Shown here piece by piece: positions 280-53,736 of a DNA stretch of 64,000 nt. The first letter of the stretch is position 1, and every line of letters begins with the position of its first letter. The notes beneath the pieces were generated by a model that saw only the letters and a list, made by a program, of their open reading frames with translations, was not told the DNA's origin and searched no databases. The stretch comes from Octopus vulgaris (Eukaryota). Location of the stretch: contig OX597814.1 of the NCBI GenBank assembly GCA_951406725.2, positions 37,014,001 through 37,078,000 on the forward strand, in the 5' to 3' direction. The position numbers and the translations under genes were made by a program.

Positions 280-420
280 CATAAATCTTCCGACTCGTTA
301 TGTCCGAAGTTCAAATCACGCCGCGGTCAACTTTGCATTTAATCATTCTGTGTTGATAAAATAATTTATTAGACTTGTACTAGACACGATAGTATTGATA
401 GTCGCTATATCAGCTTTGCG
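280..420 (+). mobile_element. Degenerate tRNA-derived SINE fragment
   Basis: gttcaaatc B-box-like motif followed by gtcaactttgcatttaatc...gttgataaa, a decayed version of the SINE body at 18429, 56912 and 63056. Confidence 0.5.
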
Positions 421-859
421 TTTCCCTTGGATAACATCGGAAGCTTGGAGAGGGGAGACTTGTATACGTGGACGCTTGCTGGTCTTCTACAAGCAACATT
501 GCCAAGGCTTGTGCTTTGGGGAAAAACTATCCAGGTGCAATCCCACGGTCATTCATGACCGAAGGGGGTCTTTACCTTTTATCCTACAATATCTGATATT
601 ATCCAAATATATATTACGATGTATAAATTGCAGTTATGTGCTCATAACTAATTTCATCCTGCAGATTTCGAATTTGTTCTCATCATAATATCCATTAACA
701 ATATAAATATTGCAACACGTTGCATTTCGGACTTTTCAGACTGCGGTGTTTACTGAAGACTTTTCTAACACTAAAACAGTTCAATTCTCATAATTTGGAA
801 GGTGAACACTAAAAATGCAAAACGTTTGTATCAACTATAATCTGAATGCCTTAAATATT

Positions 860-1545
860 CGTTAAGAATTTATAAATGGAAGAGACAATAATATCTGTTG
901 TTGCTATTGTTCTTGTTCCGCTTGTGCATGTTAATATAGTTAGGAATTTTATCTTGATGTTCGGTGACAAGACTCCTTTCAACAATCTTCCAAGGGATAG
1001 GATTCTTGCGGAATATAAGATGGTTCTTTCTTGCATGCCAACAATCTACTGTTTCTGTTTCAATCCTTTGCTGTCGTTTTGGTATCACTGCGGGCATTGT
1101 GCCTAGTGCACTAATTACTACAACTATAACCGTTGTCTTGGTCTTCCTGAGACTTTCCAGCTCTCAAGTCTTTCAATTCATTTAGTATTATTTCTTTTAT
1201 CATAGGAAATTGCAAAATCTATGACATTACACTGTTTGCTTGTTTTGTCTTCTACGATCATATCCGATCTTCTTGTTTCAATAGCAGGACCAGTCATTAT
1301 GGTGACATCCTACAAGATCTTGTGATTCTCATTTTCTATCGCATCCCCGGACTTATGTTTATACCACATTTTCTGTTGTTTTGAAGCCACGCACTCGGCT
1401 ATCATCCCAAATCACTAGTTTGCCTACACAGTTATGCCTGCGCTTATACAGCTTTTGTGGCAGTATACCGCACATACCCAAACTCTGTAATTTTGAATTA
1501 TACATAAACCCAGTAATGGAGCATCAGTATCTGAGTATCATTGTC
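860..1545 (-). pseudogene. Decayed R4/Dong-like (RLE-type) LINE, C-terminal fragment
   Basis: Minus strand resembles the WY.H.P..V.EN...KILWD...TD......PD region of RLE retrotransposons, with many stops; boundaries approximate. Confidence 0.5.
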
Positions 1546-3504
1546 TACCTGCCTTCTATTAGCGTGAATGTACGTACACTGGAGTGAAGCATTAATTGTA
1601 TATATACATATATATATATATATCGAATATTTATTAGAGAGTATTCATATAATAATGGAATTTCATTTCCAATAATGTAGTATATAATATGTAGTTGTCT
1701 CCTTACGTTTATATCAGTTAATCCGGACAAGATTCCCTTCCTACATTGGTCACTGTATATGGTTCTATTAACGTATACTTAGTATTTCCATCGCTTCATT
1801 TTAATTACATGAATAGTTCTTTTAGCGAACGCTGTGTAATTTGAAATAGCTGCTTTTGCTACATTGTAAAGTTTAGAAATATATAGACTAAGCGAAGTAG
1901 TAATCAACGTGACACACAACCTTCATCGGTTCTTCTATGACATAAAGTTTTATGGGTATCTGTATTCCACCAAAACAACTGAAGAATTTCATAAGAAAGT
2001 TTACAAATAATGTTGTTATTTTTATCTTTACGTTAACATAGATATACTTTTCACGCAATCGTTTATAACCTATTAAATGTACGATAAAACACCGAGAAAG
2101 AATAATAAGTATAAAAGTATAATTCATCTTAAAATTCTAAGTGGCTCTATTTCAGTTCAATATTGTAGCCAAAGTACAGCCTGCTTATTTTGCTGCAATG
2201 TCTAATGAAATATTGGTTTTCAGAAAATAAATCTTTGTTGCTTTGTTGTGCAGATGGCTTTAAACATTGTAATAACTCTAGGCTAGATTTGAACAAAATG
2301 TGATTTACATTAGATTTAGCTTCGTTGACATATTCTAAGTTTCAATTTTATTTTACTTTTTAAAATAAAAACAGTATCCATGGAGACGGTAGTTTATCTT
2401 ACAACACTATATATTTTAGATTGATATACCAAGATTTTAGTTAAGATGCAAAATTCACTTTACTCTGTTTGGATATTTTATACAACAACGCACTGAATTT
2501 AAATAATTTATTTCCAAACAAGTGGTTTCATTCATATTCATTTCTAGAGACACTTATTACCACCATTTGACATGCAGTGTACCAATTCTTTTTTATTTTA
2601 TTCATTGTGGTTGTCTTTAGTTAAAGCCGCACTAATATAGATATATTGCATACTTTTCTAAGCACTTATATATGTGTAATTTTGTGTGTTGTATATATAT
2701 ATATATATATATATATAACTTAGATAACTTAGATTGGTTTCGGCTATTATCGGCCTAGTCTATGACTAGCTTATTAGCAGCCCCTGGAAAATTATTTTAG
2801 TTAATTATTTCGGGACACCATAGACCACTCAAGCAGAGAACCTAGAATTTGTTCAGGTACCGTTTGAAAGTTGTGAAGTCTTTTTCTACTTTAATTTCTT
2901 TCGGGATAACAATAAAAAATGCAGGACAATTTGCAATGAAGAACTTGTGTCACAATATTCTTATGTGATGTGATCTCGACCTTTGTAGGAGACGCATTGC
3001 ACGGGGGCCTAGTCTTGGGTGAATTGTAAACATAATACCGATATCATTTGGATAATATTGGTGGAATTTTTTCCACATGGTGCAAATAATATGTAGCACA
3101 AGGCGGTGTTGCAGAGAACAGAGCTTCAGCTGTATAAAACGAGTCCAATAATCAAGCCCCATCGTGTCATTTTTAGTGATTGACTATTGTAGCGCTTAGA
3201 TCTTCATTACGTCTTGTTTATTTTAGGGGTCCACAATGGGCAGCAGTACTCGAGGTGGAGCCTAGCGAATGTGAAGAAAATGAAGATAGTTTCATGATCC
3301 CTGGATTAATAATCACATTCTACGAGCAACATCGACTTTTTTGTTGATGTGCACATGCTAGCGAAGGTTGGTGACTTCCGTTACACCTACGTCTCTAATA
3401 TTATAAGATGGTTAGAGTGGGTCTCTCGACGGTAGTGTATATGGTTGTTTGAGTGTGCCCTTTCTTCCAAAGTGGACGAGCTGAAATTCTTCTTCGTTCA
3501 ACTG

Positions 3505-3718
3505 TATATTTCAAAATGTGACCTCGTGTGTACCGTTGGCGATTTTTTTACTCTGTCTTCCCTCCTCTGGATCTTTCTTTCTCGTATGTTTCCGACGAAG
3601 AGCTCCACCCGAAACGTTAAACCCTCCTTCTATCCTTCTTTCCTGAGCGTCCAATAATACTATATTTGTTCCACGTCCTCGCGTTGTTGTGTTTTTTTGT
3701 GCTTTCTTGTTTGGATTA

Positions 3719-3722
<4 letters not shown>
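3505..3722 (+). mobile_element. Short non-autonomous module abutting (TA)n with a hammerhead-like motif (probable PLE pLTR derivative)
   Basis: Homologous to the reverse complement of 42275-42485; both copies abut (TA)n. Confidence 0.65.
3588..3622 (+). ncRNA. Minimal hammerhead ribozyme variant with decayed stem II
   Basis: gttt-CCGACGA-a-gagctccaccc-GAAAC-gtTA-aac; palindromic AACGTT at stem III. Confidence 0.5.
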
Positions 3723-3785
<63 letters not shown>

Positions 3786-3881
3786 AGGCTGAAAAAGTGG
3801 ATATTAAGTTGATTAACACCAATTTAAAACCAGTGGTCTAGCATATCCAAATCTGAAGGTTCAGTAAATTGAATTACATAC

Positions 3882-4045
3882 ATATGAGAGGGATGACCAC
3901 TATGTGGACAATCATTATGCTAGACGTTGATCCGCTATGATCTTACCACTAAGACATGTTCTCAAGACAATTTCTTAGTGAGAAGAACATAGCGGATCTA
4001 CTTCTAGCATAAGGGTTATCCACATAGTGGTCATCCCTCTCATAT
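3882..4045. repeat. ~164-bp imperfect fold-back (MITE-like hairpin)
   Basis: atatgagagggatgaccactatgtgga...tccacatagtggtcatccctctcatat, with further nested complementary blocks (tatgctaga/tctagcata, gatccgctatg/catagcggatc, cactaaga/tcttagtg). Confidence 0.85.
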
Positions 4046-4088
4046 ATTTATATATATACTGAGAGAAGGAGAGAGAGGAAGAGAGAGA

Positions 4089-4139
<51 letters not shown>

Positions 4140-4320
4140 GAGTGTTGTTTTCAATGTGTGTAAATGGTGCGTTTGGTGTTATAAATATTCATATGTTTAA
4201 GCATGCTGCTTACTTTTCAAAGAAGTCTTAATCATAGATTCATTCCAAATGCGATTTCAATTCTCATATGTAATGCGTCTCTGAATCTCTTTATAAATAA
4301 ACAATATGAAATTTGCAGGG

Positions 4321-4360
<40 letters not shown>

Positions 4361-4565
4361 ACGTAGGTTGGATATAGCGCGAAGAAACTAGCGTTCTATA
4401 TATACATGCATAACTACTGCCTCACTATTACCTGAAAGAAGGGTAGTGGATCACGTGTATGGGTTTAACGAGGAAGTTTTCTAAGCATTTTGCCAATTAA
4501 ATATCTTACTCAATCCTTAGAAATCTGTACTTTCAACACGCAGGCTATTTTTATCAATGATGTCT

Positions 4566-4625
<60 letters not shown>

Positions 4626-4677
4626 CCCCAGACACACACACATATATATATATATATGCCACCCCAGACACGCCAAG

Positions 4678-5505
4678 ATGAATATCCCCTTCAATGTAGC
4701 AAAAAGGATAGGCACTATAGTCTCTAACGCAAACACCAGAGACACACGACTACAAGAACTAAAAGATACCCTTATCACCAGGAACTATCCACCTTCACTT
4801 ATTGACAAGTGCATTCTACGTGCCCTTCAACTTAACATCAAGGAACTGAGACATCCCAAATCAAAGAAAAACTTACAACCAAAAGCCTTACCATACATCT
4901 CCACACACAACCCTCTCAATAACGAAGCCTTCGACACCATCCTCCACAACATACCCCTCCTAAAAAAAGACCACAGAATGAACACAATCCTCCAAATACA
5001 CACGATCATAAAAAGCAAAAGACAGCCTAGATCCATGAAAAGTCTCCTAACACAAGCCCGAATTCTCTCTTCAACACAGAAGCCGACAGTAAAAAAATGT
5101 GGAAGACCCAATTGCGGGATATGCGACTATCTAATTGAGGGATCAGAGTTCTCCTTCAAACAGGGACAACGGTTTACAGTGAAAAGCAACTTCACATGTA
5201 CTTCGGAGAACCTAATATACTCACTAACCTGCTCCGGGTGTCAAGAGCAGTACATAGGCCAAACAAAAAATGGTTTGCGTAAACGAATGGCCCTGCACAG
5301 ATCCCAGATAAAAATTCCCCAAAACAGAAAAATAGCTTTTAGCCAACACATAGATATTTGCGCCAACAAAAAAACACCAAACTTCAGGATTTTCCCCCTC
5401 TACCAATTTAGGGACGATACAACCTCGAGACAACGAATAAGTAAAGAAAATCTCTTTATTACAAAATACAAGCCACTTCTTAACGGGTCTACGACAAACA
5501 ATTAA
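4678..5505 (+). CDS. PLE protein C-terminal part: RT thumb, Cys linker, GIY-YIG endonuclease (truncated)
   Basis: CHPRHAK-MNIP, RNYP, CGRPNCGIC, NLIYSLTCSGCQEQYIGQT, R..LHR, H, E....KY.P.LN; collinear with the end of ORF 50495-52684. Confidence 0.9.
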   Translation: MNIPFNVAKRIGTIVSNANTRDTRLQELKDTLITRNYPPSLIDKCILRALQLNIKELRHPKSKKNLQPKALPYISTHNPLNNEAFDTILHNIPLLKKDHRMNTILQIHTIIKSKRQPRSMKSLLTQARILSSTQKPTVKKCGRPNCGICDYLIEGSEFSFKQGQRFTVKSNFTCTSENLIYSLTCSGCQEQYIGQTKNGLRKRMALHRSQIKIPQNRKIAFSQHIDICANKKTPNFRIFPLYQFRDDTTSRQRISKENLFITKYKPLLNGSTTNN

Positions 5506-6129
5506 TATACCTCAACTTTAGAATAAAAGAAATATATACACACACAAATATTACACTCCATAGAATCCATTACTAATCAGCCCCATCACAGCTATACTTT
5601 CACCCATTCATATTCTCCCTTCTCTGTTTTTTTCTTCTTCTTCTTCCTCTTCTTCTTCATCATCATCATTATCATCATCGTCGTCGTCATCATCATCACC
5701 ACCATCATCACCACCATCTTCTCCTTCTCCTTCTTCTTCTTCTTCTTCTTCATCATCATCAACATTGTCATCTTCTTCTTCTTCTACTTCTCCACCTTCC
5801 ACCCCTTAACCTTTTCACTAATGTATTTCAGTATAACGCCTACGCAAATTCCATAAACAATTCCTGAATTGAACTGCGACTACTGTCAGCCACTGACCAT
5901 TCAAAATACGACCATTAAGGCATTCCCAGATTTCCCCACCCCCTCTCCACATTAGCCTCCTTATTCTTCACCTATCCTACCGAGAACTCAAAACGACCTC
6001 GAACACACAAGTGCAAACAAGGGAGTCAGAGAAAGGCAGAATGCTACTTATATCTGAACACTACTACAGAAATATTCTTTTAAAAAAACTTTTCTTCTAA
6101 TTTTTCTAAATTTAATTATTTAATCGTTA

Positions 6130-8143: not shown

Positions 8144-8196
<53 letters not shown>

Positions 8197-8204
8197 CTAT
8201 CTAT
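8144..8204 (+). repeat. (TATC)n microsatellite
   Basis: Direct reading; left flank of the truncated Tx1 copy. Confidence 0.95.
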
Positions 8205-8941
8205 CTTCCGACCTGTGGGCTTATGTCGAACAACTGCTGTCACGTGTGGGACGAGTCGGTTTATCAGCTGAGTCTATCGTCAATATTGTCACGCCTCCTT
8301 CCTTCAAACGGGAAGGAAGAGCTATTTTCATCATCCTTGTGGCTATGGCGAAAGAATGTATCTGGTGGACGCGTCTGAAAGGATTGGAGACAAACACTTT
8401 CCTCTCTGGTCAATCTCTCATCAACTTCTTCAAGTACCACTTGAAAAGGAAAGTGAGAGTAGAGAGGCAAGTTTTGTCTAGCGAATGTTTTAAAAAAAGA
8501 TGGGTGAATGTAGCAAGAATGGCACGTATGAATGACGAAGCCACCTTGAGCATAGTCCTATGAACCCAGAAATCGAAAACAGAGAGTTGCTTATTTGCAA
8601 AAAAAAAAAAAAAAAAAAAAAAAATGTGACTTCATTGACCGAGGTTACCGTGGTCTTTTCCGTAGGCTTTTCTTTCCACGGGTAAACCTCACCTGTCCTC
8701 CCCTTTACACTTCATATTGACATTTCTGTGATAACGATCCCTATTGATCAATTTTTTTTTTCCTCTCCCCCTTTTTTTTTAACCCCCCTTTTTTTTGTCC
8801 TCTTTCTCTCCTTTTACGATCCCTTTTGATCGAAACTCCCCCTTCCTCCTTTTTTTTTTTTTTTTTAAACCTTCAAAAGAAAAGCTCTACCTTGTAATTT
8901 GTTCTATCTGTGTGCAGCCCTGTGTGGCTAATAAAGAAAAA
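8205..8941 (+). mobile_element. 5'-truncated Tx1-clade LINE copy (sister subfamily of 9022-14930)
   Basis: SDLWAYVEQLLSRVG...LSAESIVNIV.PPSFKREG...KYHLKR aligns with the C-terminus of ORF 11161-14610; ends agccctgtgtggctaataaagaaaa before (CTAT)n. Confidence 0.93.

Positions 8942-9021
<80 letters not shown>
8942..9021 (+). repeat. (TATC)n microsatellite between the two Tx1 copies
   Basis: Direct reading. Confidence 0.95.
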
Positions 9022-9225
9022 TTATTGACGGATGTGATGTAGCTTCAGCTCCGAAGGTAATCATTTATTTTGACTATTTATAGGCCAATTTTTGTGTAGA
9101 TTTTTGCAAATAAGGTGTGTAAGGCAACCAACTTTCATTTGAGTGCTTTTCCAAGGGAGGAATTCGCCCCTAGGGGCAGTTTCGACCCCATTTCATTTCT
9201 GTTATTTTCTTCTCGACATTAGAAA

Positions 9226-11103
9226 ATGTCTAGAAATTTTATTGTTGAACGCTGGTCGCGTTCTTTTTTGGAACATTTTCCTAGTCTGGAAACGACAGAG
9301 AAAAAAAAGAACGTTCGCACGGAAAATGCCAACGTGAAATTCGGTGAAAGGAACGCTGCAACCACGTGCGTTAACAGCCCTGTCACCACCGCCACCACCA
9401 CCACTAACAACAGCTACCACGAGACAACAACTGCTACCACCACCACCTCCACCACCACCACTACCACGACCAACATAAATGATAAAAATAAAACTGAAAC
9501 GAAAACTATTGACAAAAACAACAGCAACAACAAGAACAATAATAAAAATGAACTATCTAATAGTGAAGATGCCAATACAAAAAAGTCAACAACAGTAAAT
9601 TTCGCAGATATTCTTCGCCAGAAAAAGGAGATTGTTACATTCACAAATGAAGAGCTCATAGAAACAAGAGCTCTCTTTACAACCCGTGGACAAGATTTAG
9701 TCCTGCATACACCTCAACATATAAAACAAGAAATTGAAAATAAGACTATTGTATATAAAATTATTAGAAAAAACAAAAAAACAAATGAACAGATTACAAA
9801 AACTGATGTGGAGAAATGTTTAAAAAACATAATGAAAGAAAAAGAGTATATAAACTGGGGTCCCCAGTTTAACACAGTAGTGGTACGCTTCCCTAACCAG
9901 GAAGTGGCAAAAGCTCACTCTACTGAGTCTCTGGGAAATGATGAAATCATCATGGTCCCTTATTATAAAAACCAGAGGGTGAGTAGAATTACTATCAGAA
10001 ATGTACCCCCCGATATGCCGAACAAATGGATAACAGGGGCAATCTGTTACCACTTGAAAAAGATCAATATTCTAGAAACAGCCGTGTACCTAAACGACAA
10101 TTGGGGTGGAAAAACAGTAGTTGTGACCATCCAGATTGAGGGGGCCTCTATCGAGATCCTACCCGACAAGATATACTTGGAGAATGGGCAATGCCTATAT
10201 GTTATGGCAGAAGGCAAAAAGCCTAGATGCTACAAATGTGGCAGCCCCGAACATTTGATTGCCAAGTGCGATCTGGTACAGAAAAAACAAGAAAGAACAA
10301 TTCAGAAAACAAATAAAATCCCTTTGTTGCCAACACCAACACCAACACACTCAATTATGGAACAACGCCAAGAAAAACAACAAACCAGCAAACAAACCCC
10401 AACAACATCACCAAGAAAAACAGTACCAACACAATCACCGTTGACGTCACAACCAATTAAACTTGTTGAATCTTCAAAAAATCGACCCACACCCACACCC
10501 AGGACGACAATTAAAAAGACAGAAAACACTGACGAGAAGACAAATGCTACCCCTAACACCACAACAACACAAACACCGCACAAAACATCAACAATTTATA
10601 CAAGCATACATAGTGATCCTGTTCTTTTTCCTCTACCCCATACTGATACCTCGGACGACGAAAGTTCGACGGAATGGCAAATAGCCACAGGGGGTAAAAG
10701 AAAAAGATCCAAAAAATCCACCAAACAAGGAATTAAAGCAGGGAGATATCTCACTCAGGACAACATTCCCCTAGACAATCAAAAAAGTAATGAACCCGTA
10801 AAACCACACACACAACTAACTGCAATAGACACAGACAATAAAGAATTAATGGACTACATCAAATCTAACATGGTCGTCTGTGAAGATGATTTTAAGACAA
10901 ACAATCATCCGCACACCACACCACCGAAACACATCAGAATTTTACACATAACACAAGCACAACACCACATACTGAAAACATTATTTCCGAATGCGGTAGG
11001 CGGGTATCAACGATACCTGTCGAAAAAACTATACAAACACCTCATCAAAAACGATACAAAAGAAGAAGAAGAAAAAAATGAAACTTTTAAAATGAGTAAG
11101 TGA
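9226..11103 (+). CDS. Tx1-like ORF1 nucleic-acid-binding protein with CCHC zinc knuckle
   Basis: 625 aa uninterrupted; RITIRNVPP RRM-like segment, CYKCGSPEHLIAKC knuckle, T/N/P-rich disordered flanks, basic KRKRSKK motif. Confidence 0.88.
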   Translation: MSRNFIVERWSRSFLEHFPSLETTEKKKNVRTENANVKFGERNAATTCVNSPVTTATTTTNNSYHETTTATTTTSTTTTTTTNINDKNKTETKTIDKNNSNNKNNNKNELSNSEDANTKKSTTVNFADILRQKKEIVTFTNEELIETRALFTTRGQDLVLHTPQHIKQEIENKTIVYKIIRKNKKTNEQITKTDVEKCLKNIMKEKEYINWGPQFNTVVVRFPNQEVAKAHSTESLGNDEIIMVPYYKNQRVSRITIRNVPPDMPNKWITGAICYHLKKINILETAVYLNDNWGGKTVVVTIQIEGASIEILPDKIYLENGQCLYVMAEGKKPRCYKCGSPEHLIAKCDLVQKKQERTIQKTNKIPLLPTPTPTHSIMEQRQEKQQTSKQTPTTSPRKTVPTQSPLTSQPIKLVESSKNRPTPTPRTTIKKTENTDEKTNATPNTTTTQTPHKTSTIYTSIHSDPVLFPLPHTDTSDDESSTEWQIATGGKRKRSKKSTKQGIKAGRYLTQDNIPLDNQKSNEPVKPHTQLTAIDTDNKELMDYIKSNMVVCEDDFKTNNHPHTTPPKHIRILHITQAQHHILKTLFPNAVGGYQRYLSKKLYKHLIKNDTKEEEEKNETFKMSK

Positions 11104-11160
11104 CCTCACTTCTTGCCTCTTGTCTCTTCTAATATAGTGTGTAAAACACAATTTTCGTAA

Positions 11161-14100
11161 ATGTCAAGTATGCTTAAATTAGGTTGTGTGAATGCGCGTG
11201 GCTTGGCGTCGGCTTGGAAGCAAGGTTACCTTCTAAACGACATCAAGTCACTGGACGTGGATATAGTAGCTATCAGTGAAACCAGACTCAGTAAGCCGCG
11301 GGCCCTCGAGTCCATGTTTGGCAATCAATTTGACATTTATTTTTCTCCCTGTCTGCCGAACATGGGTGGTGGAGGTACTGCGGTGCTTTTTCGAAAGAGT
11401 CTAAAGGTAAAAGTAAGAGCAATATTCCTAGACCCGGAGGGTAGGCTGGTTGTCTTGGACGTGGATGGCAGAAATGGGTGTGCATTCCGTCTGATGGCAG
11501 TTTATGCACCGTCCTTAACGGGTCGGGCGGATTTCTTCAGACGTCTAGAGGTTTTCCTGGGTACGTCTAGACCTTTACTGTTAGTAGGGGATTGGAACGC
11601 TACCTTGGACACGCATCTAGATTATGTGGGAAGGGATAGGAATAGAAGGGGGTGTAAGAGCATCAAAGACCTGCTCAGACGTTTCCATTTGTCTGACAGG
11701 TTCCGACTCGACCATCCGAACGTGCCAACGTGGACTTGGACAAACCGCGTCGGATCGTCGAGATCTTATCTAGATAGAATTATATGCAGGACAGCGGATA
11801 GGGATAGTGTAGGATGTCCACAATTTAAAGTAGTCAGCTACACAGATCACAAATTTGTTACGTGTACGCTCGACTTAGATAAAACACATAGGCAGGGTCC
11901 CGGTTACTGGAAACTGAACACGTCGCTGTTAGCGCGACAGGTTTACAGGAACCGGATTAGCGAGTTAATTAAGAGGGCGCTGACGGGAGCGGTCGTTAAC
12001 AACAGCTGGTGGTACGCCCTGAAAATGGCAATAAAATCGGAATCAATTAGGTTTAGCAAGGAATTAGCGATAGAACGAAATAGAGTAGAGGGAGACTTAG
12101 TTAAGAAACTAGAAGAGGCACTTACCACTGGCAGCGCAACCAACGTGCTAGCTGCGAGGATGGCCCTCGACCAACACCTCAACGCCAAGCACGAAGGTTG
12201 CGTCGTCAGAGCTAAAATGCGTGCCTTAAGGAACGAAGGGATTGAAGCTGCGCGAGAGGCCCGGGTAGCGGAGGCGCAGCGTGGCAACAGATCAACCATT
12301 CGGTCTCTAATAGATCAACAGGGATGCAGTTTACTCGAACCCGAAAGGATGTGTGAGGCCTTTCAACAGCACTTTGCTCGACTGTTTGGTGCGAGTGGTG
12401 GGTCGGAACGAGGGATGGATTTCAGTGCCTACCTGACCGACCTGCCGCGGCTCTCGGCAAGAGAGGCGGAGTGTTGTGAAAGTCCCATCACAGCCGCTGA
12501 CGTGTGGGATGCGATGGCGGGCTGCGCGAGGGATAAGTCGCCTGGATTGGATGGTTTACCCTACGAGCTGTATTGTCTAATGCCAGACTTGTTTGGCGAC
12601 CTCTTGGCATCAGTCTACTGCAACTGGCAACAAAACGGGAGAATCCCCGGTTTCGTGAGCCGAGGTGCAGTGACGTTGCTGAAGAAAGACTCAAACAAGG
12701 GGAATTTTATAGATAATTTCAGGCCCATCACTCTGCTCAACGCAGATTTGAAAATTTTGGCCAAAGTAATAGCCGAGAGGTTGGCGCTTGTCATTGGTAA
12801 AATGGTCGACAGGGCGCAAACATGCGCCGTGCCGGGCAGAACCATACATGACAACCTCCATCTGATGCGCTACATTGTGGACAGGGTAGTTAAGGATCCT
12901 GGCATGGGTGGGGCGCTGATAAATTTGGATCAGTCTAAAGCCTTCGATAGGGTCGACCATCGGTACTTGGCGGCCGTCCTCAGGGCGGCTGGCTTCGGTC
13001 CCGTGTTCCGCGGTTGGATCGCTGCCTTGTATAGCGGCATCCGATCGGTGATTCGGGTGAACGGTCACCTGTCGAAACCGTTTGACATGACACGTTCGGT
13101 CCGTCAGGGGTGTCCCCTGTCGGCGCTTCTGTATGTATTGACTCTCGAGCCGCTACTGCGGAAGCTGGCGACACTGAGGGGCATCCCACGGGAACTAGGT
13201 TGCGGGACGAGCGTGTCGGCATATGCGGACGATGTCACCGTCATAGTGTCGAGCTACCAGCATATCGAGCTGGTCGGCGAGACACTAAGAAAATATGAAA
13301 CGGTGACGGGAGCAAAGATTAACCCGGAAAAGTCAGTGGGTTTGCTACTCGGCACCTGGAGAAGCAAGCCCATGCCGTCCGACTGCGGCTCAGTAGTGGG
13401 ACGCTGGACGGACGGACCGGTTAAATTGCTCGGGGTCTGGTTCAGTCCGGACCTCCAAATGGATAAGAACTGGGACGAGATCACGAGTAGAGTGGTCGCT
13501 CTCAGCCAAAAATGGGCCGAGAGAAAGCTGTCTCTAAAAGGCCGGGCGGAGGTGGCGAACGCGTACATCGCATCAGTCATCAATTACCGCCTGACCGTCG
13601 TACCTTGTCCCGACGCCACCATCACCAAACTGGAACGCATACTCTTCCGCTTCCTGTGGAAGGGTGGCGTTCCGATGGTGAGGAAGTCCATTTGCTGTCA
13701 ACATCCGTTGAATGGAGGACTGGGCATGCCGTGGTTGATGATGCGCAGGCATGCGCTGAGACTGCGACATCTCTGGAAATTCATCGACGACGGTGAACAG
13801 GTGTGGGCGCCGTTTGTGAGGCGCGACTTCCCGCAGCTCGTCTCACTGACCGAACTGCAAACGTGGATCAAAAAGAGACCGAAACTGGGCGATTGGCACC
13901 GAGAGTGTCGCCAAGCTCTACAGCAGCTCTGCCGACCGGGGTCAAACTTGTGCAACTTCCAAACGACTAAAGCGTTCTATAGAGGACTAGTGCAGGGGAG
14001 GTCCGACGACACACTCGGGGCAAACCTAGGCGTCGACGAGGAATTCCTAACCCGCCTGTTCAGGACGACGTTCGGGCCGGGGCCTATGGATAACTTCCAG

Positions 14101-14610
14101 AAATCCCTGGCTTGGCAGTGCTATCGAGACGCACTACCTGTTCGAGAGAAGAGCTACAGACACGGTTCGAAAACCATCACCGGACCGACCTGCCCGAGAT
14201 GCGGTCAGAGCGACGAAACCGTTCTGCACGCACTCGTGCAGTGTCCAGATATTTCAGAGCTGTGGTCCTTCGTCGAACAGCTGTTGTCACGTGTAGGTCA
14301 GGCTCGCCTATCGGCCGAGTCTATCGTGAATATTGTTCGACCACCTTCCTTTAAACGGGAAGGGAAAACGGTTTTCGTTACGCTGATGGCTATGGCGAAA
14401 GAATGTGTGTGGTGGACGCGTTTGAAAGGACTGCAAACAAACACCTTCCTCTCTGGTCAGTCTCTCGTCAACTTTTTCAAGTACCACTTGAAAAGGAGGA
14501 TGAGAATAGAGAGGAAGGCTTTGTCGAACGAATGTTTTAATAAAAAGTGGGTAAAAGTGGCAAAAATGGTCATTATGAAAGACGACACTATTTTAAGCAT
14601 AAATCTGTAA
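11161..14610 (+). CDS. Tx1-like ORF2: APE endonuclease + reverse transcriptase + C-terminal zinc finger
   Basis: 1149 aa; NARGL, ISET, VYAP, GDWN, SYLDRI, TDH (APE); KSPGLDG, FRPITLLNADLKILAK, LDQSKAFDRV, RQGCPLS, YADD (RT); CPRC...HALVQC. Confidence 0.97.
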   Translation: MSSMLKLGCVNARGLASAWKQGYLLNDIKSLDVDIVAISETRLSKPRALESMFGNQFDIYFSPCLPNMGGGGTAVLFRKSLKVKVRAIFLDPEGRLVVLDVDGRNGCAFRLMAVYAPSLTGRADFFRRLEVFLGTSRPLLLVGDWNATLDTHLDYVGRDRNRRGCKSIKDLLRRFHLSDRFRLDHPNVPTWTWTNRVGSSRSYLDRIICRTADRDSVGCPQFKVVSYTDHKFVTCTLDLDKTHRQGPGYWKLNTSLLARQVYRNRISELIKRALTGAVVNNSWWYALKMAIKSESIRFSKELAIERNRVEGDLVKKLEEALTTGSATNVLAARMALDQHLNAKHEGCVVRAKMRALRNEGIEAAREARVAEAQRGNRSTIRSLIDQQGCSLLEPERMCEAFQQHFARLFGASGGSERGMDFSAYLTDLPRLSAREAECCESPITAADVWDAMAGCARDKSPGLDGLPYELYCLMPDLFGDLLASVYCNWQQNGRIPGFVSRGAVTLLKKDSNKGNFIDNFRPITLLNADLKILAKVIAERLALVIGKMVDRAQTCAVPGRTIHDNLHLMRYIVDRVVKDPGMGGALINLDQSKAFDRVDHRYLAAVLRAAGFGPVFRGWIAALYSGIRSVIRVNGHLSKPFDMTRSVRQGCPLSALLYVLTLEPLLRKLATLRGIPRELGCGTSVSAYADDVTVIVSSYQHIELVGETLRKYETVTGAKINPEKSVGLLLGTWRSKPMPSDCGSVVGRWTDGPVKLLGVWFSPDLQMDKNWDEITSRVVALSQKWAERKLSLKGRAEVANAYIASVINYRLTVVPCPDATITKLERILFRFLWKGGVPMVRKSICCQHPLNGGLGMPWLMMRRHALRLRHLWKFIDDGEQVWAPFVRRDFPQLVSLTELQTWIKKRPKLGDWHRECRQALQQLCRPGSNLCNFQTTKAFYRGLVQGRSDDTLGANLGVDEEFLTRLFRTTFGPGPMDNFQKSLAWQCYRDALPVREKSYRHGSKTITGPTCPRCGQSDETVLHALVQCPDISELWSFVEQLLSRVGQARLSAESIVNIVRPPSFKREGKTVFVTLMAMAKECVWWTRLKGLQTNTFLSGQSLVNFFKYHLKRRMRIERKALSNECFNKKWVKVAKMVIMKDDTILSINL

Positions 14611-14928
14611 CCAAAAGAGACAACGAGAAGTAAGGCGACTTACTCATGTGTTCTTTTTCGAACTGTCTGAGGTGACCTTGGTCTTTTTTGTAGGTTTTTC
14701 TTTCCAAGGCTACACCTAAACTGTGAACCTTATATATATATATATAGTGCTTTTTTATACACCACACAACCCACAGATCTCTATTGATCAAACGGTTTTT
14801 TTTTTTTTTTTTATTTTTTATTAATTTTTTTTTTTGCCCCACCCATCCCACCTCGAAAAGAAAAAATTCTACATTGTATTTCGTCCATTTTTATTCTGTG
14901 TTTAGCCCTGTGTGGCTACAATAAAAAG

Positions 14929-14930
<2 letters not shown>

Positions 14931-15013
<83 letters not shown>

Positions 15014-33611: not shown

Positions 33612-33995
<384 letters not shown>

Positions 33996-34199: not shown

Positions 34200-36345
34200 A
34201 AGCAGCATGTTGATGTCCGCTCTGATCAGGAACATGGAGGAGGAAGTGAGAGGTAACTCTCATAATGAGTTGCAATAAATATCAACGTCCTCTGCTTTCA
34301 GCCCTCAGTTTGAGGGGAGGTGAACTTTTACCAGATTCAAAGCACAGTGAACTGCACTACCATCAACACAACAGAGGAATTTAATTCCAACAATAAATTT
34401 GACATACCATAATAAAAGTGACAAGTTCGACCACCATTAACACTTTCACCATCACTACCTCTACAAGAGGAAAAATCCTTATGGAAGGAAAAACAAAAAA
34501 AAAATGTTGCCCTGAAAGTCGGTGGGTGCCTATGTCAGACCGAAACATTTCAAACTTGACCAATTTTGCCGCTTGGACCAGACATAATACTTTGTGCGGG
34601 ATTTCCATCCTATAATGTTCCGTGGCTTTAGCATTTAATGTTGATATTGTTGTTGATGTTGTTATTATATAGGTCGGAAAGATCGTAATATACAAAAGCT
34701 GTTTCCTTAAGGAAAAAAACATCCGGCGACGGCTAGCCAAATAGACATGGAAGGAGTGCTCAAACCAATAATTCAGAATATGTGAAGAGCCTAGATATTT
34801 AAGGGCATTTCAGTGTTCTTTAAGAATGAAGCAATCTCTAGCCAACAAACACTTTGTGGTTCCATGCCAGATCAGAGGGAAAACCGCTTTCCCTCCATCA
34901 TATTCAGAAAGGAGGACGGTGAGATTGAAGATCTCTGGTATTCAACCCGAGGTTAATGTATGGTGCGTTTTAGCGTGCTTGGTATTGGAATTAAAGAACA
35001 GCTTCTTGGATATGAAGGGAACATATAGTAAAAACTTATCTTGGATAAACGTGAAGGTGTTACTCTACATAAAATCAGACGTGATACACAAGATCGTAGA
35101 TCTCATTTTGTTTTCAGGAGGGAAACAGCTGCATACTAAAGTTGAGAGTAGATGGTCTTGCTGCCACCCGAGTGACAAGTTCGGTCAATTGAGAGCTTTC
35201 TACCCTCAACAGAAGATAGGGACCATAGGAATGTCTTATTGCGATCAGCAATTCTCCAAAAGCCACAACTAAATAGCATCGAGCAACAACAAAAGCAGCA
35301 TCAGCCTAGCAGCAACAGCAAAATCAAGAACAGCAAGAGCAAAGCCAGTAACTGCTACAAGAACGTCAACACCAGGAACAACTGGAAAACAAGCAACACT
35401 AACAACACAAGCAGCAAGTGGACCACCACCACTGCCTTCAACAAGAGAAAGAATTATAATGGACATGCACAAGATACAGGTGCTCTTCCAACGAAACCCC
35501 CTACTCCCCCCTCTCTCTCTCTCTCTCTCTCTTTCAATTTCTCTCTGCCTTACCACATATTCTAAACATACTGTTAGTCCTGCATCACGAATTTAGAATC
35601 CCCAAACCAAAAGAAAAGACAAAAGTAAAACATGATAAATCATTATACCTCATACGAACAAACACAAACAAAAGCATAGGAATCATATTCGCAACGATCA
35701 CATGTCCGCAGCAATCACAGAAGCACCTAATGCAAAAACAAACTCTGCAGCATTTCAAATCTCGACACAGCCACGACCGTCACAACCGGCTCCACCGGTA
35801 TTATCACAACCGCGGAAACCCACTAAAATGAAACACTCACAACAGCAATACCCAACCAGGCAAACAAAAGTTTCTACGAGGGCTAACAAAGAACTGATGA
35901 CTCTCGTAACAAGAAGGTAGGACGTCGATTGAGAATAGTAAGGTCTACGCACCGTTCAAGTGCCAAAAACATTGACGAAGGTCCGTATGCCGCTGGAAAC
36001 AGAAATATTAGCGAGAACTTCCCTCACAGCGTGAACATCTTTAGAGCTTCCCTCACAATGTAGAAAGACCTGGTGTAAAAGTCAGGAACAGAATTTTAAG
36101 GGAGTTCCAAACGAAGACCCAACCAGTATATAGGTTGAACCACCTGACCTCCAGCAGCACCTGGTGGGTGAGTAGTCCCACATTTTACCTCCTTCTCTGA
36201 ACTCTTTCCGACCACCATGGCGAGTTTAATCGTAGGCTATATAAATAATCGTGGCCTGGAGTCGCCCTGGAAGCAATGTCGTTCACTCAAAGCACTCAGC
36301 TCACTCACTAGGATTGTGGCGGTTATCAGCGAGACCAAGATTTCC
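34200..36345 (+). pseudogene. Old Tx1-like LINE: decayed ORF1 and start of ORF2
   Basis: RRTVRLKISGIQPE...KVESRWSCCH resembles ORF1 RVSRITIRNVPP...AEGKKPRCYKC; MASLIVGYINNRGLESPWKQ...VISETK at ~36218 matches the ORF2 start; left boundary approximate. Confidence 0.7.
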
Positions 36346-38600
36346 TCTGTACATTCTTCTTTTTATTTCTTTGTAGAATAGTTTCTGATCTTCTCTGAAT
36401 AACTTATTCTACTGGTATTCCTCCATTCTTTGTTCGTATCTTACGAACTTTGCTTTCTTTACAACGAGACGCTGTTTCAGTTCCCCCATTACCGTTTTCA
36501 GGCCCTTTCTTTCAATATCATACTTCCTGCTTAGTTCCCTGTATTTTCGTTGGCTTTTAAGCTCCTCCTATTTTTCTAATGTCTTTCGAGAGCGCATCTA
36601 ATCCCGCCTGTATTCTTCATTTCAACTATGGATATTTTCTTTGGACACTCCTACTATTTTTATGTTTATTGACATCAACACCCACATTTTCTGCTACAAC
36701 AATACTTGCTGACTTAATCAAAGTGTTTGTTTCTGTGATGCTTTTTTTTTGGGGGGGAGGGGGTCTGATGTATTTCAGAATTTCATTCACATCTTTCGTT
36801 TCTTGGTTAAATTTCCACCGACCAACTGTTTTAAGATTGATGATTAGATTGCTATCACTCTCTTGTAGCCTTGCCTTTATTCTGTCGTAGATTGCCTTTT
36901 GCCCATCTGTCATGCCACCATTAATTTTATTGTCTTCTTCCAGACCATCTATATGTCTCACATCGAGCAAGATATAACTGTTCCTTTCTGCTATGAGATT
37001 ACTTTTATCAGTAGGAACCGTATTTTCATCATTTCCTCTGCTGGTGTTTTCCTATACTCTTCTTTTGACAGCTTCGACCTGTACTTCCGTAAACCAACGA
37101 TTTGTTTCTTATCGCTCTAGCCTGATCACATAATCTCTGTCCTGTGAATTGAAACAATCCTCTTTGGTCATACATACGATGTCGGTGTCCCCTACGTTGA
37201 ACACTATTTTCGTCTACGGAGTCGCTGGGGTAGTTACACTCCATGAGCAGAGTATTGACTTATTTGTTCCATCTATACCGTGTGTACAGTTCCCTTGCTG
37301 GATAACGAGAAGCTTGATTTGTACCAGTATATCTAGCCTGCTTGGTGCAAAACTATCACCATCAATGGCTTCAGTTTCTTTACAACCGTTATTAACCATA
37401 GTATTTCAAATTCCTCTGCTAATGTGTTTCTATCAGTAGTCACTGTCATATCAATTAAAAGGCATGTTTTCATGTCTTAGGTCTTTGATGATGAAGTTTG
37501 ATCTGTTAGCATTTTATTTGCCACCCATGACATCGCCAAATTTGTGTGTCTCTTCTTGCAGTCAGCTAAGATAGTCTTATCGGTTTGTAATTAATCCTTC
37601 GTTTCTCTGCTTTTACGTCTACATCCTATTTGTTATTCTTGTAGTAGGTCGTTCTCATCTAACTACTTATAGATGCTATTTGATATGATGCCTATAATCA
37701 CATCAGTGGCAAACAAGATATTGGGTGGAAATTTCCAACCACATTCCCTTTACGTGGGTCCTTCCGGAATAGTGCCGTTTTTCCTTTTGTCATCCAGGCT
37801 GGTACTTGAATATCACTACTCAGTATTTCGTCCATCTCTTTAGTTTATGTGCTTTAGTTTTCAACCCCTGTTTTAATTCCGCAATCAAAACACCGATTTC
37901 CTTTCTCTCGCTGACTTCATTTCTTTTTTTTCCATTTCTGAATATTAATATGTTTTCCTGGTCTCGTTAATAGACTGCGCTATTTATATTGACATTTACC
38001 TTTCACTTTTACACCTAACTTCAGGGCTATAAAGATCGAAATTACGTTTATCATATTGCTGGTGTCTGTGATGTTGTCAGTCCTGATATCACCAGTGATA
38101 TCATTTATCTTCCTGACCGATTCATTGAGTTTCTTTCTGTCTACTTCCTCATACCCGTTATGAAAACGCTGTTCACCAGAGGTCCAAATATCAATGATTT
38201 CATTTAAAATAGATATCTATTCTTCGGTTCTCTCATCGCTTTCCTTTAATTATACAGCCATAATCTCACTATCTCGATTTTCCTCCTCCCCCTTCCGTTC
38301 ACCGCTAGTCCGTAGGCACCAGTCTCTTAATGCTTTCTAGTTTAACTGGAACAACTATTCATTCCTTCTGATGGCTCTAGCTTTGTCACACAAATCTTGT
38401 TCACTTAATACAAATAGGCCTCTGTAGATCCATGTTCTGTGCATTCGTTTCCTGTATCCCCTAGCGGGCACTTAATTATCATTTCTTGGATTACCCAGAG
38501 AGTAGCACTCCATTACAACCACATTCATTTCTTTCGTCCACCTTCAGTTAGCAGTTACTTGATGACGACTAGGCCCACGCTGCTCACCCGTAGGACACTA
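36346..38600 (-). pseudogene. Two decayed R4/Dong-like remnants inserted into the old Tx1
   Basis: QRLCDQARAI, ITETNTLIKSASIVVAE (N-terminal region); WMTKGKTALFRKDP...NFHPISCLP (RT) in the distal part. Confidence 0.7.
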
Positions 38601-38613
38601 ACCACACCTGAGG

Positions 38614-39270
38614 GTGGGTAATGAAGCTGGTATGGGTGGGGCTCGGATCAATTTAGATCATCAATATTTGGCAACTGTACTCAAAGCAGCCGGCTTCAGT
38701 CCAGTTTTCCGCGGTTGGATCGTTGCTTTGTACAGCGGAATCCGCTCGGTTGTTCGGGTTAATGGTTATCTTTTCAAACCATTCAGCATTTTGCGTTCGG
38801 TCCGTCAAAGGCGCTGTCTCTTCTCCCTTCAGTATGCACTGAGTCTTCAGCCATTGTTACGTAAGTTAGGGGTTTTGAGGGGTGTCCCGCGTGATCTAGT
38901 ATGTGGGAGAAGTATGTCTACTTACGCTTACGATGGCACCGTCATAGTGTCAAGTTATAGGGATGTAGACCCGATTGGCCACACACTACAAGAATATGAA
39001 GCGGTGACCGGAGCAAAAATTAACGCAGTAAAGTCAGTGGGCTTGCAACTCCGCACTTGGAGAGGCAAGTTCATGCAGTCCAACAGTGGTGTCGGGCACT
39101 GGAAAGGCAGTCCGGTTAAATTGCTCGGAATCTGGTTTGTTTCAGACCTACAAAGTAATGTGGCCAATCTCACCTACAGATGGTCCGAGACGAAGCTGTC
39201 CCTGAAAGGGTCAGCGTAGGTGCCGAATGCATACATCGCATACGGAATCTATTACCACTTTACCATCCCC
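38614..39270 (+). pseudogene. Old Tx1-like RT fragment (continuation of 34200-36345)
   Basis: GMGGARINLD..YLATVLKAAGF.PVFRGWI..LYSGIRSVVRVNG...YEAVTGAKIN..KSVGL...KLSLKG, highly similar to ORF 11161-14610 but with degenerate YAYD. Confidence 0.9.
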
Positions 39271-39277
39271 CTTCCCC

Positions 39278-39367
<90 letters not shown>

Positions 39368-47785: not shown

Positions 47786-48235
47786 ATTGCCTGTTATATA
47801 CATCATATTATATTATTATCTTTATAATTCACTTCCATCTTTACCCTTTAATTGTCACTTTAATTTTAACTTTCCTATGACATACAACTTTCAAGATGGT
47901 ATAATTTGGTTGTTCATTTTGAACCGATAAAAAGGTTTTTTCAAATATTTTATGTATAAGTCTGTGTGTGTGTATATATATGTGTTGGTATAAATATCAA
48001 CACACAAAAATATTTTTTCTTCTCCACTTCCTCCCTTATTTTTATTTTTTTTTTTTATTTTTATTTTTTTATTTTTTATTCTTTATATTTTTATTTATTC
48101 TTTATATTTTTTTATTTTATTTTTTATTTTTTGTTTTTATTTTATTTTTTTAATTTTTTAATTTTTTATTTTTATTATTATTATTTTTATTTTCCCTTTT
48201 CTCTTTTTGTCTCTCTCCCCTTCTCCAAACACACA

Positions 48236-48283
<48 letters not shown>

Positions 48284-48491
48284 AAAACACACACAGACAC
48301 ACAGAGACACACACACACACACACCTCCACAGAATGATCATAGAAAGTGTGACCCCAAATGACATTTGCCAGGCCAACCTATGCACAACACACACTCAGT
48401 GACATTGAAATGGACAGCCAAAGTTCTTATAAAACCACAGGGGGTCCAGCAGACCAACGGAAATAACACTTCTTCACTCTCAGATATAAAT

Positions 48492-48563
<72 letters not shown>

Positions 48564-48779
48564 ACATATTTTCTCTCTGTCTCACTTCCTCCTCACCCAC
48601 TACTACGAAACTATAAAAAGGTTCAAACTACCCACAACTGATTTGATTTGAAAACCCACTAGAATGGGAGCAAGCGCTAATCCGAATGATATGATATATA
48701 TGTAAAAAATGTAATATATAAATAAATATCTACAAATATGAACCATCTGATCTGATTACCTCAATTTTTCTAATATATA
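47779..48779 (+). repeat. 5' pseudo-LTR (direct repeat)
   Basis: Nearly identical to 52731-53736 apart from microsatellite lengths. Confidence 0.95.
48645..48682 (+). ncRNA. Atypical hammerhead-like motif in the pLTR (copies at 53602-53639 + and 47394-47431 -)
   Basis: gat-TTGAAAA-ccca(ctagaa)tggg-aGCAA-gcgc-TA-atc; palindromic AGCGCT stem III, but GAAA is replaced by aGCAA. Confidence 0.45.
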
Positions 48780-48839
48780 ATACCTGTACATCATCTCCAA
48801 ACCTTCCGATACATATATTTGGATGTACATGACATCAGA

Positions 48840-50447
48840 ATGGATGGACTAATATCAGATCCACAAACAGAAGATACCAAAAATACAGAAAATATTGAAA
48901 GGAATGGAACAGAACCAGACCCCAAACAGGCTTATACCAAACACGCAGAAGACCTAACACAAATCTGCAAAATATGCAATGCTGAAATAAACAAGACAGA
49001 AGCACATCTTCAACAGGGAAATACCAGAAGCATGGAAGATCTACTCACAGAAACCTGTAGTAAGTTAAATTCACTTCTCTCAAAAATTGATACGCTCTTT
49101 GCAAACATTGCTTTAACAATAAATACAATCCAAACACAAAATATTCTCTGTAAAAATAATCAAACAAACACAACTGATAACACAAACCTTCTGGCGGGAC
49201 TACCCCAATCACAAAGGACAACAAATGACGAAGAAACAAAAACTGACACAAACCAAGAAAAACCTTCAAAACCCCAAGACTGGAACAAACTTCTAAACCA
49301 ACGCAAATATGCTTATTGGAAAAACATACGCTGTAAGAACATAGCCAACATATATCAAAACTGGCGGGACTTGAAGAACCCAATACTCCCTAGAAAATTT
49401 CTTATCAAAGAAATAAGGGGTGAAACACTAGAAGAAACAACAATACGTGCAAACCTAGCCCTCTGCCGACTAGAAACGGAAATTTCCCTTCTACAAACAC
49501 GAAGCACACACCAGGAAGATAAGATTAAAACAATCGATACCGTCATAATGGCCGAGATAACAGAAAGGAACAATAACCAAAACAAAGAAAAACTACAACA
49601 ATTATGGAAAGAGGATACCGAACGAGAGGAGGAAAGATCCAGATTTATGTGGACCAAACAACATGAGTGGTTTTTAAACTATGAAAAGAACTATGGTGAA
49701 GAATCAATTATGAAGACAAAAAAACTACCAAAACAAATGAATAGATACAACAAACTAACACCACAAACATACTGGACTCCCAGACATCAAAATAAGCCCT
49801 ACCAAACACAAACCAAAATCCCGCTCCTTACACTGCCGAACCCCCCAATTAACAGATACACAAAATATGAAAGACAACCATCAACCCAAAACCCCACAAA
49901 AACAAACACACCAACAGCAAGACGAGCACAATACATACAACCAACAACCTATAACACTTGGAGAGAACAAATAGAATATGAACAACCACCAACACATAAC
50001 ACTGGACACCCTAAAGGGACACACACATGGAACAATATACAAATGGATAGAAACCAACACATAACCCACAACAAACATCAAGGAAATCGAAACCACACAA
50101 ACACCAACCCCATGCAACCCCACAAATTTCCAAGATGGATAAAAAACAACTCCCACTATCAATACAATACAAACACAATACATGAACCATCCACCTACCC
50201 ACAAAGAAACCTGAACCCCAGTAATAAATATTGGCTCAACCAACACAGAAGATGGGAAGAAAACAACTACCAAAGACAAAACAACACATACAGACCACAC
50301 AGACCACCCCAACTACAAGAAAACCTAAGAACTGAAAATGGAATTTGGAGACGTAACAACACAACCCATTTTTTAGGGAGAGGATACTTCAACCATACTC
50401 CAGACCCAATACACCAAAAATTCCGGATGAACTCCCAAAACACATAG
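48840..50447 (+). CDS. PLE ORF1, 535 aa from the first ATG: coiled-coil N-half and Q/N/H/P/T-rich C-half
   Basis: Uninterrupted ORF inside the pLTR-bounded unit; heptad-like helices, WNKLLNQRKYAYW...YQNW...PRKF domain; overlaps the RT frame. Confidence 0.85.
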   Translation: MDGLISDPQTEDTKNTENIERNGTEPDPKQAYTKHAEDLTQICKICNAEINKTEAHLQQGNTRSMEDLLTETCSKLNSLLSKIDTLFANIALTINTIQTQNILCKNNQTNTTDNTNLLAGLPQSQRTTNDEETKTDTNQEKPSKPQDWNKLLNQRKYAYWKNIRCKNIANIYQNWRDLKNPILPRKFLIKEIRGETLEETTIRANLALCRLETEISLLQTRSTHQEDKIKTIDTVIMAEITERNNNQNKEKLQQLWKEDTEREEERSRFMWTKQHEWFLNYEKNYGEESIMKTKKLPKQMNRYNKLTPQTYWTPRHQNKPYQTQTKIPLLTLPNPPINRYTKYERQPSTQNPTKTNTPTARRAQYIQPTTYNTWREQIEYEQPPTHNTGHPKGTHTWNNIQMDRNQHITHNKHQGNRNHTNTNPMQPHKFPRWIKNNSHYQYNTNTIHEPSTYPQRNLNPSNKYWLNQHRRWEENNYQRQNNTYRPHRPPQLQENLRTENGIWRRNNTTHFLGRGYFNHTPDPIHQKFRMNSQNT

Positions 50448-52684: not shown

Positions 52685-52730
52685 AACTTTACTCAACATA
52701 CATTGAAGGAAAAATCTGTGTGTGTGTAGA

Positions 52731-53200
52731 TGTGTGTATTGCCTGTTATATACATCATATTATATTATTATCTTTATAATTCACTTCCATCTTTACCCTT
52801 TAATTGTCACTTTAATTTTAACTTTCCTATGACATACAACTTTCAAGATGGTATAATTTGGTTGTTCATTTTGAACCGATAAAAAGGTTTTTTCAAATAT
52901 TTTATGTATAAGTCTGTGTGTGTGTATATATATGTGTTGGTATAAATATCAACACACAAAAATATTTTTTCTTCTCCACTTCCTCCCTTATTTTTATTTT
53001 TATTTTTATTTTTTTATTTTTTTATTTTTTATTCTTTATATTTTTATTTATTCTTTATATTTTTTTATTTTATTTTTTATTTTTTGTTTTTATTTTATTT
53101 TTTTTAATTTTTTAATTTTTTATTTTTATTATTATTATTTTTATTTTCCCTTTTCTCTTTTTTGTCTCTCTCCCCTTCTCCAAACACACAGACACACACA

Positions 53201-53238
<38 letters not shown>

Positions 53239-53446
53239 AAAACACACACAGACACACAGAGACACACACACACACACACCTCCACAGAATGATCATAGAA
53301 AGTGTGACCCCAAATGACATTTGCCAGGCCAACCTATGCACAACACACACTCAGTGACATTGAAATGGACAGCCAAAGTTCTTATAAAACCACAGGGGGT
53401 CCAGCAGACCAACGGAAATAACACTTCTTCACTCTCAGATATAAAT

Positions 53447-53520
<74 letters not shown>

Positions 53521-53736
53521 ACATATTTTCTCTCTGTCTCACTTCCTCCTCACCCACTACTACGAAACTATAAAAAGGTTCAAACTACCCACAACTGATT
53601 TGATTTGAAAACCCACTAGAATGGGAGCAAGCGCTAATCCGAATGATATGATATATATGTAAAAAATGTAATATATAAATAAATATCTACAAATATGAAC
53701 CATCTGATCTGATTACCTCAATTTTTCTAATATATA
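52731..53736 (+). repeat. 3' pseudo-LTR
   Basis: Direct repeat of 47779-48779, ending in (TA)n. Confidence 0.95.

Follow-up and report, generated by a model that had tools for sequence, protein, structure and literature searches.

Octopus LINE families of the L1/Tx1 type that target (TATC)n microsatellites, and a sister family on (ATT)n

The stacked locus and its element families

Two LINE copies lie one behind the other in octopus DNA, each bounded by (TATC)n. Is this microsatellite the target that the elements seek, or is it a tail that they leave behind? A sequence-only reading of the 64-kb window (the whole stretch of DNA that was analyzed) had described the order as (TATC)n, truncated copy, (TATC)n, full-length copy, (TATC)n, and we find exactly this layout, all on the + strand. 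The stack begins with a (TATC)16 array (16.2 units; positions 8144-8206) that has no element 3' end before it and thus represents a free target. A 5'-truncated copy of a family that we call B follows (8207-8941, 735 bp, corresponding to 5327-6084 of the B reference). It retains the last 118 codons of ORF2 and the 3'UTR, with AATAAA at 8930-8935 and without poly(A). The interval 8942-9023, consisting of (CTAT)20 (8942-9021) and then TT, separates it from a full-length copy of family A (9024-14930) in which both ORFs are intact. The A copy contains a 5'UTR (9024-9225), ORF1 (9226-11103, 625 aa), ORF2 (11161-14610, 1149 aa) and a 3'UTR (14611-14930) with a T tract, a conserved GCCCTGTGTGGC motif and AATAAA at 14920-14925, again without poly(A). 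A (TATC)7.5 array (14931-14960) ends the stack, followed by an AC/AT compound microsatellite up to 15456. These three are the only TATC arrays in the TRF listing of the 64 kb window.

The B copy likely entered the 5' array of the A copy. Repeat is left on both sides of each insertion, so that new copies can stack, as they do here. As a hint of age, the B copy shows 0/354 differences from the majority sequence and the A copy 2/357 and 3/720, a weak comparison because the loci were not deduplicated and the B copies were chosen for identity. Dense same-strand stacks of A, B and a further family, D, extend over tens of kb elsewhere in the genome (C1:60.40-60.44 Mb, C2:59.68-59.73 Mb and C1:71.61-71.63 Mb).

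The window also holds other elements. A decayed Tx1-like element at 34200-39300 has ORF1-like and APE-like remnants, interrupted by other sequence, and a reverse transcriptase (RT) fragment at 38602-39219 with about 70% amino acid identity to families C and D; it ends at (TTA)35, and a compound trinucleotide array lies before it (33614-33994). A Penelope-like element at 47846-53523 has an open RT and GIY-YIG frame (50357-52684, 775 aa), an upstream frame of 557 aa and similar blocks of ~700 bp on both sides. A GIY-YIG-bearing 3' fragment of another Penelope-like element (4561-5505) is flanked by TA microsatellites.

The stacked copies have the layout of the L1/Tx1 group, with ORF1 followed by an ORF2 that encodes an N-terminal APE endonuclease, a reverse transcriptase (YADD) and a C-terminal CCHC zinc finger (domain matches Exo_endo_phos, RVT_1 and zf-RVT). 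The best relative of ORF2 among solved proteins is L1 ORF2p (199 bits), and R2 scores only 76 bits. A CCHC zinc knuckle in ORF1 is typical of the Tx1 clade; family A ORF1 has a zf-CCHC match at aa 334-349 (E 0.002) that lies just under the Pfam cut-off. Two of three named homologues are annotated as 'Transposon TX1 149 kDa protein' (P0012: 33% identity, 325 bits; human L1 gave 199 bits in a separate search). In a quick tree built without reference Tx1 or L1 sequences, families A-D group with the unnamed proteins P0001-P0007 and P0052, apart from P0012. The probable Tx1 assignment thus follows from domain layout and homologue names rather than from a phylogeny that includes reference Tx1 families. 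The elements also carry the marks of TPRT, namely 5' truncation (84 B copies), a conserved 3' end and target-site duplications (TSDs). At four loci we noted rearrangements: 5' inversions of the kind left by twin priming and, at a B junction, what looks like a single inversion or duplication of the flanking DNA. A search of the ESM Atlas returned only unnamed RT-endonuclease clusters, and 70 metagenome loci of distant relatives, on contigs that mostly extend barely past the element end, contained no TATC or ATT run of at least 5 units.

The sequence-only reading had assigned the two copies to different subfamilies. They are indeed distinct and independent insertions, but the separation is deeper than that of subfamilies. 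Over ORF2, the identity between A and a full-length B copy (L149) is 82%; their 5'UTRs differ and most of ORF1 cannot be aligned, and we regard A and B as separate young families. For family A, the genome contains at least 150 matches to the APE at 93% identity or more, of which 48, counted by eye, lie in an open frame of 1149 aa. The 118 amino acids of the truncated B copy recur with 100% identity at no fewer than 150 places on three contigs alone (protein search), and the 23-nt 3' end of B occurs exactly 6,251 times genome-wide. A query with the decayed element at 38.6 kb of the window led to two further young families, D (ORF2 frame of 1159 aa) and C (1145 aa). In the quick tree, A, B and D form one clade; C and P0001 lie beside it in a branching order that is not settled.

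The four families have a GACG...GCTCC motif in common in the 5' region, which is likely to be an internal promoter. The first ~55 nt of A and D are common to both, the window copy included, and the two diverge beyond this point (loci L442-L476, L266 and L270), so a 5' promoter exchange between A and D is possible. The start of D heads is a variable run of (CT)n; that of B heads, CTCTCTCAC, is rich in pyrimidines. The 3'UTRs of A, B and D (about 8760 and 14775 in the window) are predicted to form a small GATC...GATC hairpin, and that of C is not. Further 3'-end variants, on TATC (…CAATAAAGAAACTT) and, at one locus, on TTA, indicate that there are more families.

Repeats at the element ends

The location of TATC repeats relative to complete element heads is consistent across the genome. 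A 16-nt head common to A and D has 104 exact matches, and in 60 of these, 13 nt of repeat in phase immediately precede the head; (GATA)4 is upstream of 0/104. Among the other heads, 43 of 44 were inspected, and 40 of them have at least three units within 60 nt (30 within 25 nt). The three misses are one chance match outside the family and two heads with degenerate or very short runs. Overall, 100 of the 103 A/D heads examined have TATC repeats no more than 60 nt upstream. D heads often begin with the (CT)n run, and some A heads have a common TTT variant, so part of the head could be element-borne. The real test therefore comes from truncated copies.

For that test we used 110 B copies on contigs C1-C3, chosen by protein identity and not by flank, a choice that favors young copies. 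The 5' junction was in view for 94 of them, and dropping three internal breaks left 91. A junction was scored as positive when the last 25 nt before it contained at least three TATC units, which holds for 0.44% of positions in a background of twenty 10-kb regions (200 kb) taken at round-number positions, and for none of the 112,904 positions elsewhere in the window. TATC was present at 82 of the 91 junctions, including those of 76 of the 84 truncated copies, which are cut at positions 313 to 5327. No junction had the repeat in antisense (0/91). The smaller sample of truncated A copies gave 7/9, one miss being an internal deletion, and a separate look at truncated A copies gave 3/4; in the fourth, a run of TA separates the element from the array. 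Thus, the earlier claims that most copies have (TATC)n at the 5' junction, that the repeat is more than a tail, and that its orientation is constant all hold genome-wide, the frequency being ~90% or more. The idea that the 5' repeat is merely an element-borne head is ruled out by the truncated copies.

The upstream arrays do not simply reflect neighboring elements. The tail of another copy accounts for 18 of the 82, and the remaining 64 have no element end before them. Microsatellite-specific families have been defined as those in which more than 20% of flanks consist of one sequence type (PMC4494074). The corresponding values here are 90% for B, 97% for the A/D heads and 61% for truncated copies of family C, the last under a relaxed rule described below. 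Because the repeat lies upstream of truncated copies and is never antisense, it is a target and not only a tail, and we conclude with near certainty that A, B and D target TATC repeats.

The 3' junctions are equally regular. For B, ATCT starts within a few nucleotides of the element end at 105 of 105 junctions, and none has poly(A); for A, 42 of 43 ends are followed by three or more TATC units. In all four families, 5-9 nt separate AATAAA from the repeat that follows. In 18 of 83 copies the perfect repeat downstream is no longer than 8 nt, and the median run is 52 nt upstream versus 36 nt downstream, which indicates that no long tail is added. Upstream runs of 8 nt or less are rarer (7/83 versus 18/83 downstream). 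This weakly suggests that insertion requires repeat sequence on the upstream side of the nick, a requirement that pairing of the RNA could not provide for.

The 5' junctions are also biased in phase. The 28 blunt junctions of truncated copies end in ATCT (17), CTAT (9), TATC (1) and TCTA (1), a distribution that departs from a near-uniform null (p = 6e-6). Either of two events would fit this T-ending phase: cleavage of the second strand after T, or addition of an untemplated A by RT. Microhomology at truncated junctions (0 nt, 28; 1 nt, 17; 2 nt, 6; 3 nt, 5; nine junctions without an anchor left out) is not clearly above the null. TSDs were found as four informative matches in 86, of 14-24 nt including microhomology, where shuffling gave a mean of 0.14 and a maximum of 1 in 200 shuffles. 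The expected TSD is present in only 3 of 20 testable junctions, so TSDs must often be shorter or lost. Contigs from four other runs gave no joint across the insertion at the window locus; the flank contigs end at the repeats.

Choice of the insertion site

Family C bears directly on how the site is chosen, since its repeat is a different one. (ATT)n follows 56 of 57 C 3' ends and precedes 11 of 12 full-length heads, six of them in head-to-tail arrays. Truncated C copies gave 26 raw breakpoints (seven of which passed the strict rule); eight were removed by eye (three spurious repeat matches, one internal deletion and four inversions or rearranged pieces), leaving 18. Of these, seven have ATT under the strict rule (background 0.25%) and 11 under the relaxed rule (background 0.28%). 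TATC was present at 0/39 C breakpoints, and ATT at no B junction. C is a looser targeter than A, B and D.

Other features of the C copies concern the arrays in which they lie. Head-to-tail arrays of full-length copies have a period of ~5,870 bp with joints of only 3-11 ATT units (C4:93.80-93.84 Mb, C1:202.33-202.35 Mb, and contigs C47 and C50, both seemingly filled; loci L242-L250, L258 and L259). Such arrays could arise either from repeated insertion of C into its own tail or from unequal exchange. The ATT run around a C copy is also often the tail of some other repeated sequence, with the same upstream motifs recurring (six loci), and those ATT arrays were likely made by other elements.

The sequence-only reading had proposed an endonuclease specific for (TATC/GATA)n in an element with both ORFs intact. 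The ORFs are intact, but the endonuclease as sole determinant was not borne out. C and A are 68% identical over the aligned APE region, and the beta-hairpin loop WTW[TS]NR[IV]GSSRSYLD, which aligns with the L1 loop at 192-202, is identical in A, B, D and C, although C uses (ATT)n. In addition, if a match of 7-8 nt on the downstream side of the nick were the only requirement, 83-88% of sites would be expected in arrays, where 90% are seen. Together, these two observations make pairing between the RNA and the primer an equally live determinant. The identity of the hairpin itself says little, since a hairpin graft did not transfer the specificity of Tx1L to L1-EN (PMC1950540).

We postulate, with only slightly better than even confidence, that two keys select the array in A, B and D: a nick by APE and pairing by the 3' end of the RNA. 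The endonuclease would nick the GATA strand at T^A (AT^A). A T^A nick like that of L1 would fit the 3' junctions, although the terminal T of A, B and D, just before ATC, leaves its exact position ambiguous. Cleavage of RNA occurs 10-30 nt after AAUAAA. With AATAAA 5-9 nt before the repeat, the RNA 3' cleavage would fall within the downstream array of the donor and leave a short repeat end on the RNA. A few UAUC units at this end would pair with the freed DNA end and prime reverse transcription, and the second strand would likely be cut a few to ~20 nt away, mostly after T. Pairing of repeat units on the RNA with the nicked strand would explain both the missing poly(A) and the fixed 3' phase. 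In L1, priming relies on pairing of the last 4-10 nt (PMC3649969).

The main alternative, which we consider possible but not probable, is that the endonuclease alone decides: the APE of A and B would read (GATA)n, that of C would read (AAT)n, and the RNA end would play no part. The phase bias at the 5' junctions, which are beyond the reach of an RNA tail, and the rarity of short runs upstream speak for this alternative. So do the ~40 other APE positions, plus a three-residue insertion, at which C differs from A, B and D. Some of the C-specific positions fall in loops that correspond to DNA-contacting parts of L1, namely 117-120 and the R155 region (PMC8565326), and the specificity of the C enzyme could therefore differ. 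At one nearly repeat-free target with a clear TSD (L154), four of five bases upstream of the inferred nick match the repeat, and target choice has been described as mainly set by the endonuclease (PMC4494074). However, an endonuclease acting alone leaves two features of the 3' junctions unexplained, the lack of poly(A) and the constant phase at 105/105; families on the two kinds of target have one and the same hairpin loop, and L1-EN makes few base contacts (PMC8565326).

Less probable still, and in our opinion improbable, is homing by the RNA to a nick that is itself unselective, made in slipped or nicked microsatellite DNA or by a promiscuous endonuclease, with priming dependent on at least 7 nt of tail pairing. 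The close agreement between predicted and observed array residence, and the fact that every B 3' junction starts with at least ATCT, would follow from such a mechanism. It does not account for the strong phase bias at blunt 5' junctions, the intact catalytic motifs of APE or the short TSDs, and several copies have a downstream match of only 4-6 nt, for which it predicts array residence of 16-62%. Finally, the view that there is no targeting, with the repeat an element-made tail and the 5' arrays neighbors' tails, later expansions or survivors of selection, has in its favor the 18 upstream arrays that are tails of other copies and the fact that no empty allele was obtained, but it is very unlikely and largely refuted by the 64 arrays without an element end before them, the longer upstream runs, the 18 nearly tail-less copies, the TATC arrays in random regions, most of which adjoin no element, and an absolute orientation among copies nearly identical in sequence.

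Under the two-key model, one endonuclease preference could serve both groups of families, since AT^A occurs in both bottom strands, (GATA)n and (AAT)n; the choice between TATC and ATT targets would fall to the RNA end. We speculate, more tentatively than for the model itself, that the RNA 3' end programs the target throughout the lineage, a single AT^A endonuclease serving the TATC and ATT families and the guide being inherited from the donor site. If this is true, a LINE could switch from one microsatellite to another without a change of enzyme and could be retargeted by tail editing.

Comparison with known microsatellite LINEs

How APE-type LINEs find microsatellites is poorly understood (PMC3812793), and the sister pair on TATC and ATT offers a test of how they choose. 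The families are young and intact, ~68% alike in the APE region and located in two different repeats, which permits a clean comparison of an endonuclease swap with a tail swap. With 6,251 exact B 3' ends, these elements shape GATA-repeat loci and build LINE stacks, and they may disrupt microsatellite markers based on GATA.

The microsatellite targets of LINEs listed in the available text of PMC3812793 are ACAY (Waldo), AC (Mino), TC, TTC and TAA (Dong), and TATC is not among them. Our literature search, in which coverage of subscription papers was thin, found no report of a TATC-targeting LINE. An account of octopus repeats gives a total of 80 L1-Tx1 families, 13 of them recently active, with no target analysis in the text available (PMC13282606); the term Tx1 does not occur in the accessible part of PMC9115989. 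Based on our results, A, B and D are microsatellite-targeting Tx1-type LINEs with a new target, new as measured against the targets given in the available text of PMC4494074 and PMC3812793.

The closest parallels are Kibi on (TC)n and Koshi on (TTC)n, Tx1-clade LINEs of teleosts (PMC4494074, PMC3812793). Like A, B and D, they are APE-type elements with two ORFs that insert specifically in a microsatellite. They differ in target and host, (TC)n and (TTC)n in teleosts as opposed to (TATC)n and (ATT)n in octopus, and it is the target and not a tree that sets them apart from the elements described here. D heads often have a short (CT)n run, which looks element-borne. Tx1 families of crocodilians reside in (TTCC)n or (TTTC)n (PMC4494074) and thus have a preference for tetranucleotide microsatellites in common with the octopus families. 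However, their targets are pure pyrimidine on one strand, which TATC and ATT are not, and the octopus genome, unlike the crocodilian case as far as the available account describes it, contains a young sister family on a different repeat.

Waldo, Mino and Dong are likewise microsatellite-targeting LINEs, and the (TAA)n of Dong is the same repeat as that of family C. Dong belongs to the R4 clade and has a restriction-like endonuclease; the use of (TAA)n by the Tx1-type family C would be a case of convergence. Waldo and Mino, in contrast to the octopus families, belong to the R1 clade according to a title cited in PMC3812793.

The comparison with human L1 concerns mechanism. L1 nicks at TTTT/A and primes by 'snap-velcro' pairing along a poly(A)-T tract (PMC3649969, PMC8565326). 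The octopus elements are similar to L1 in their APE-RT-CCHC ORF2, and a T^A nick combined with primer pairing, as known for L1, is what we propose for them. They differ from L1 in that A, B and D insert without poly(A), the pairing unit would be UAUC or AUU, and ~90% of the sites lie in a single repeat.
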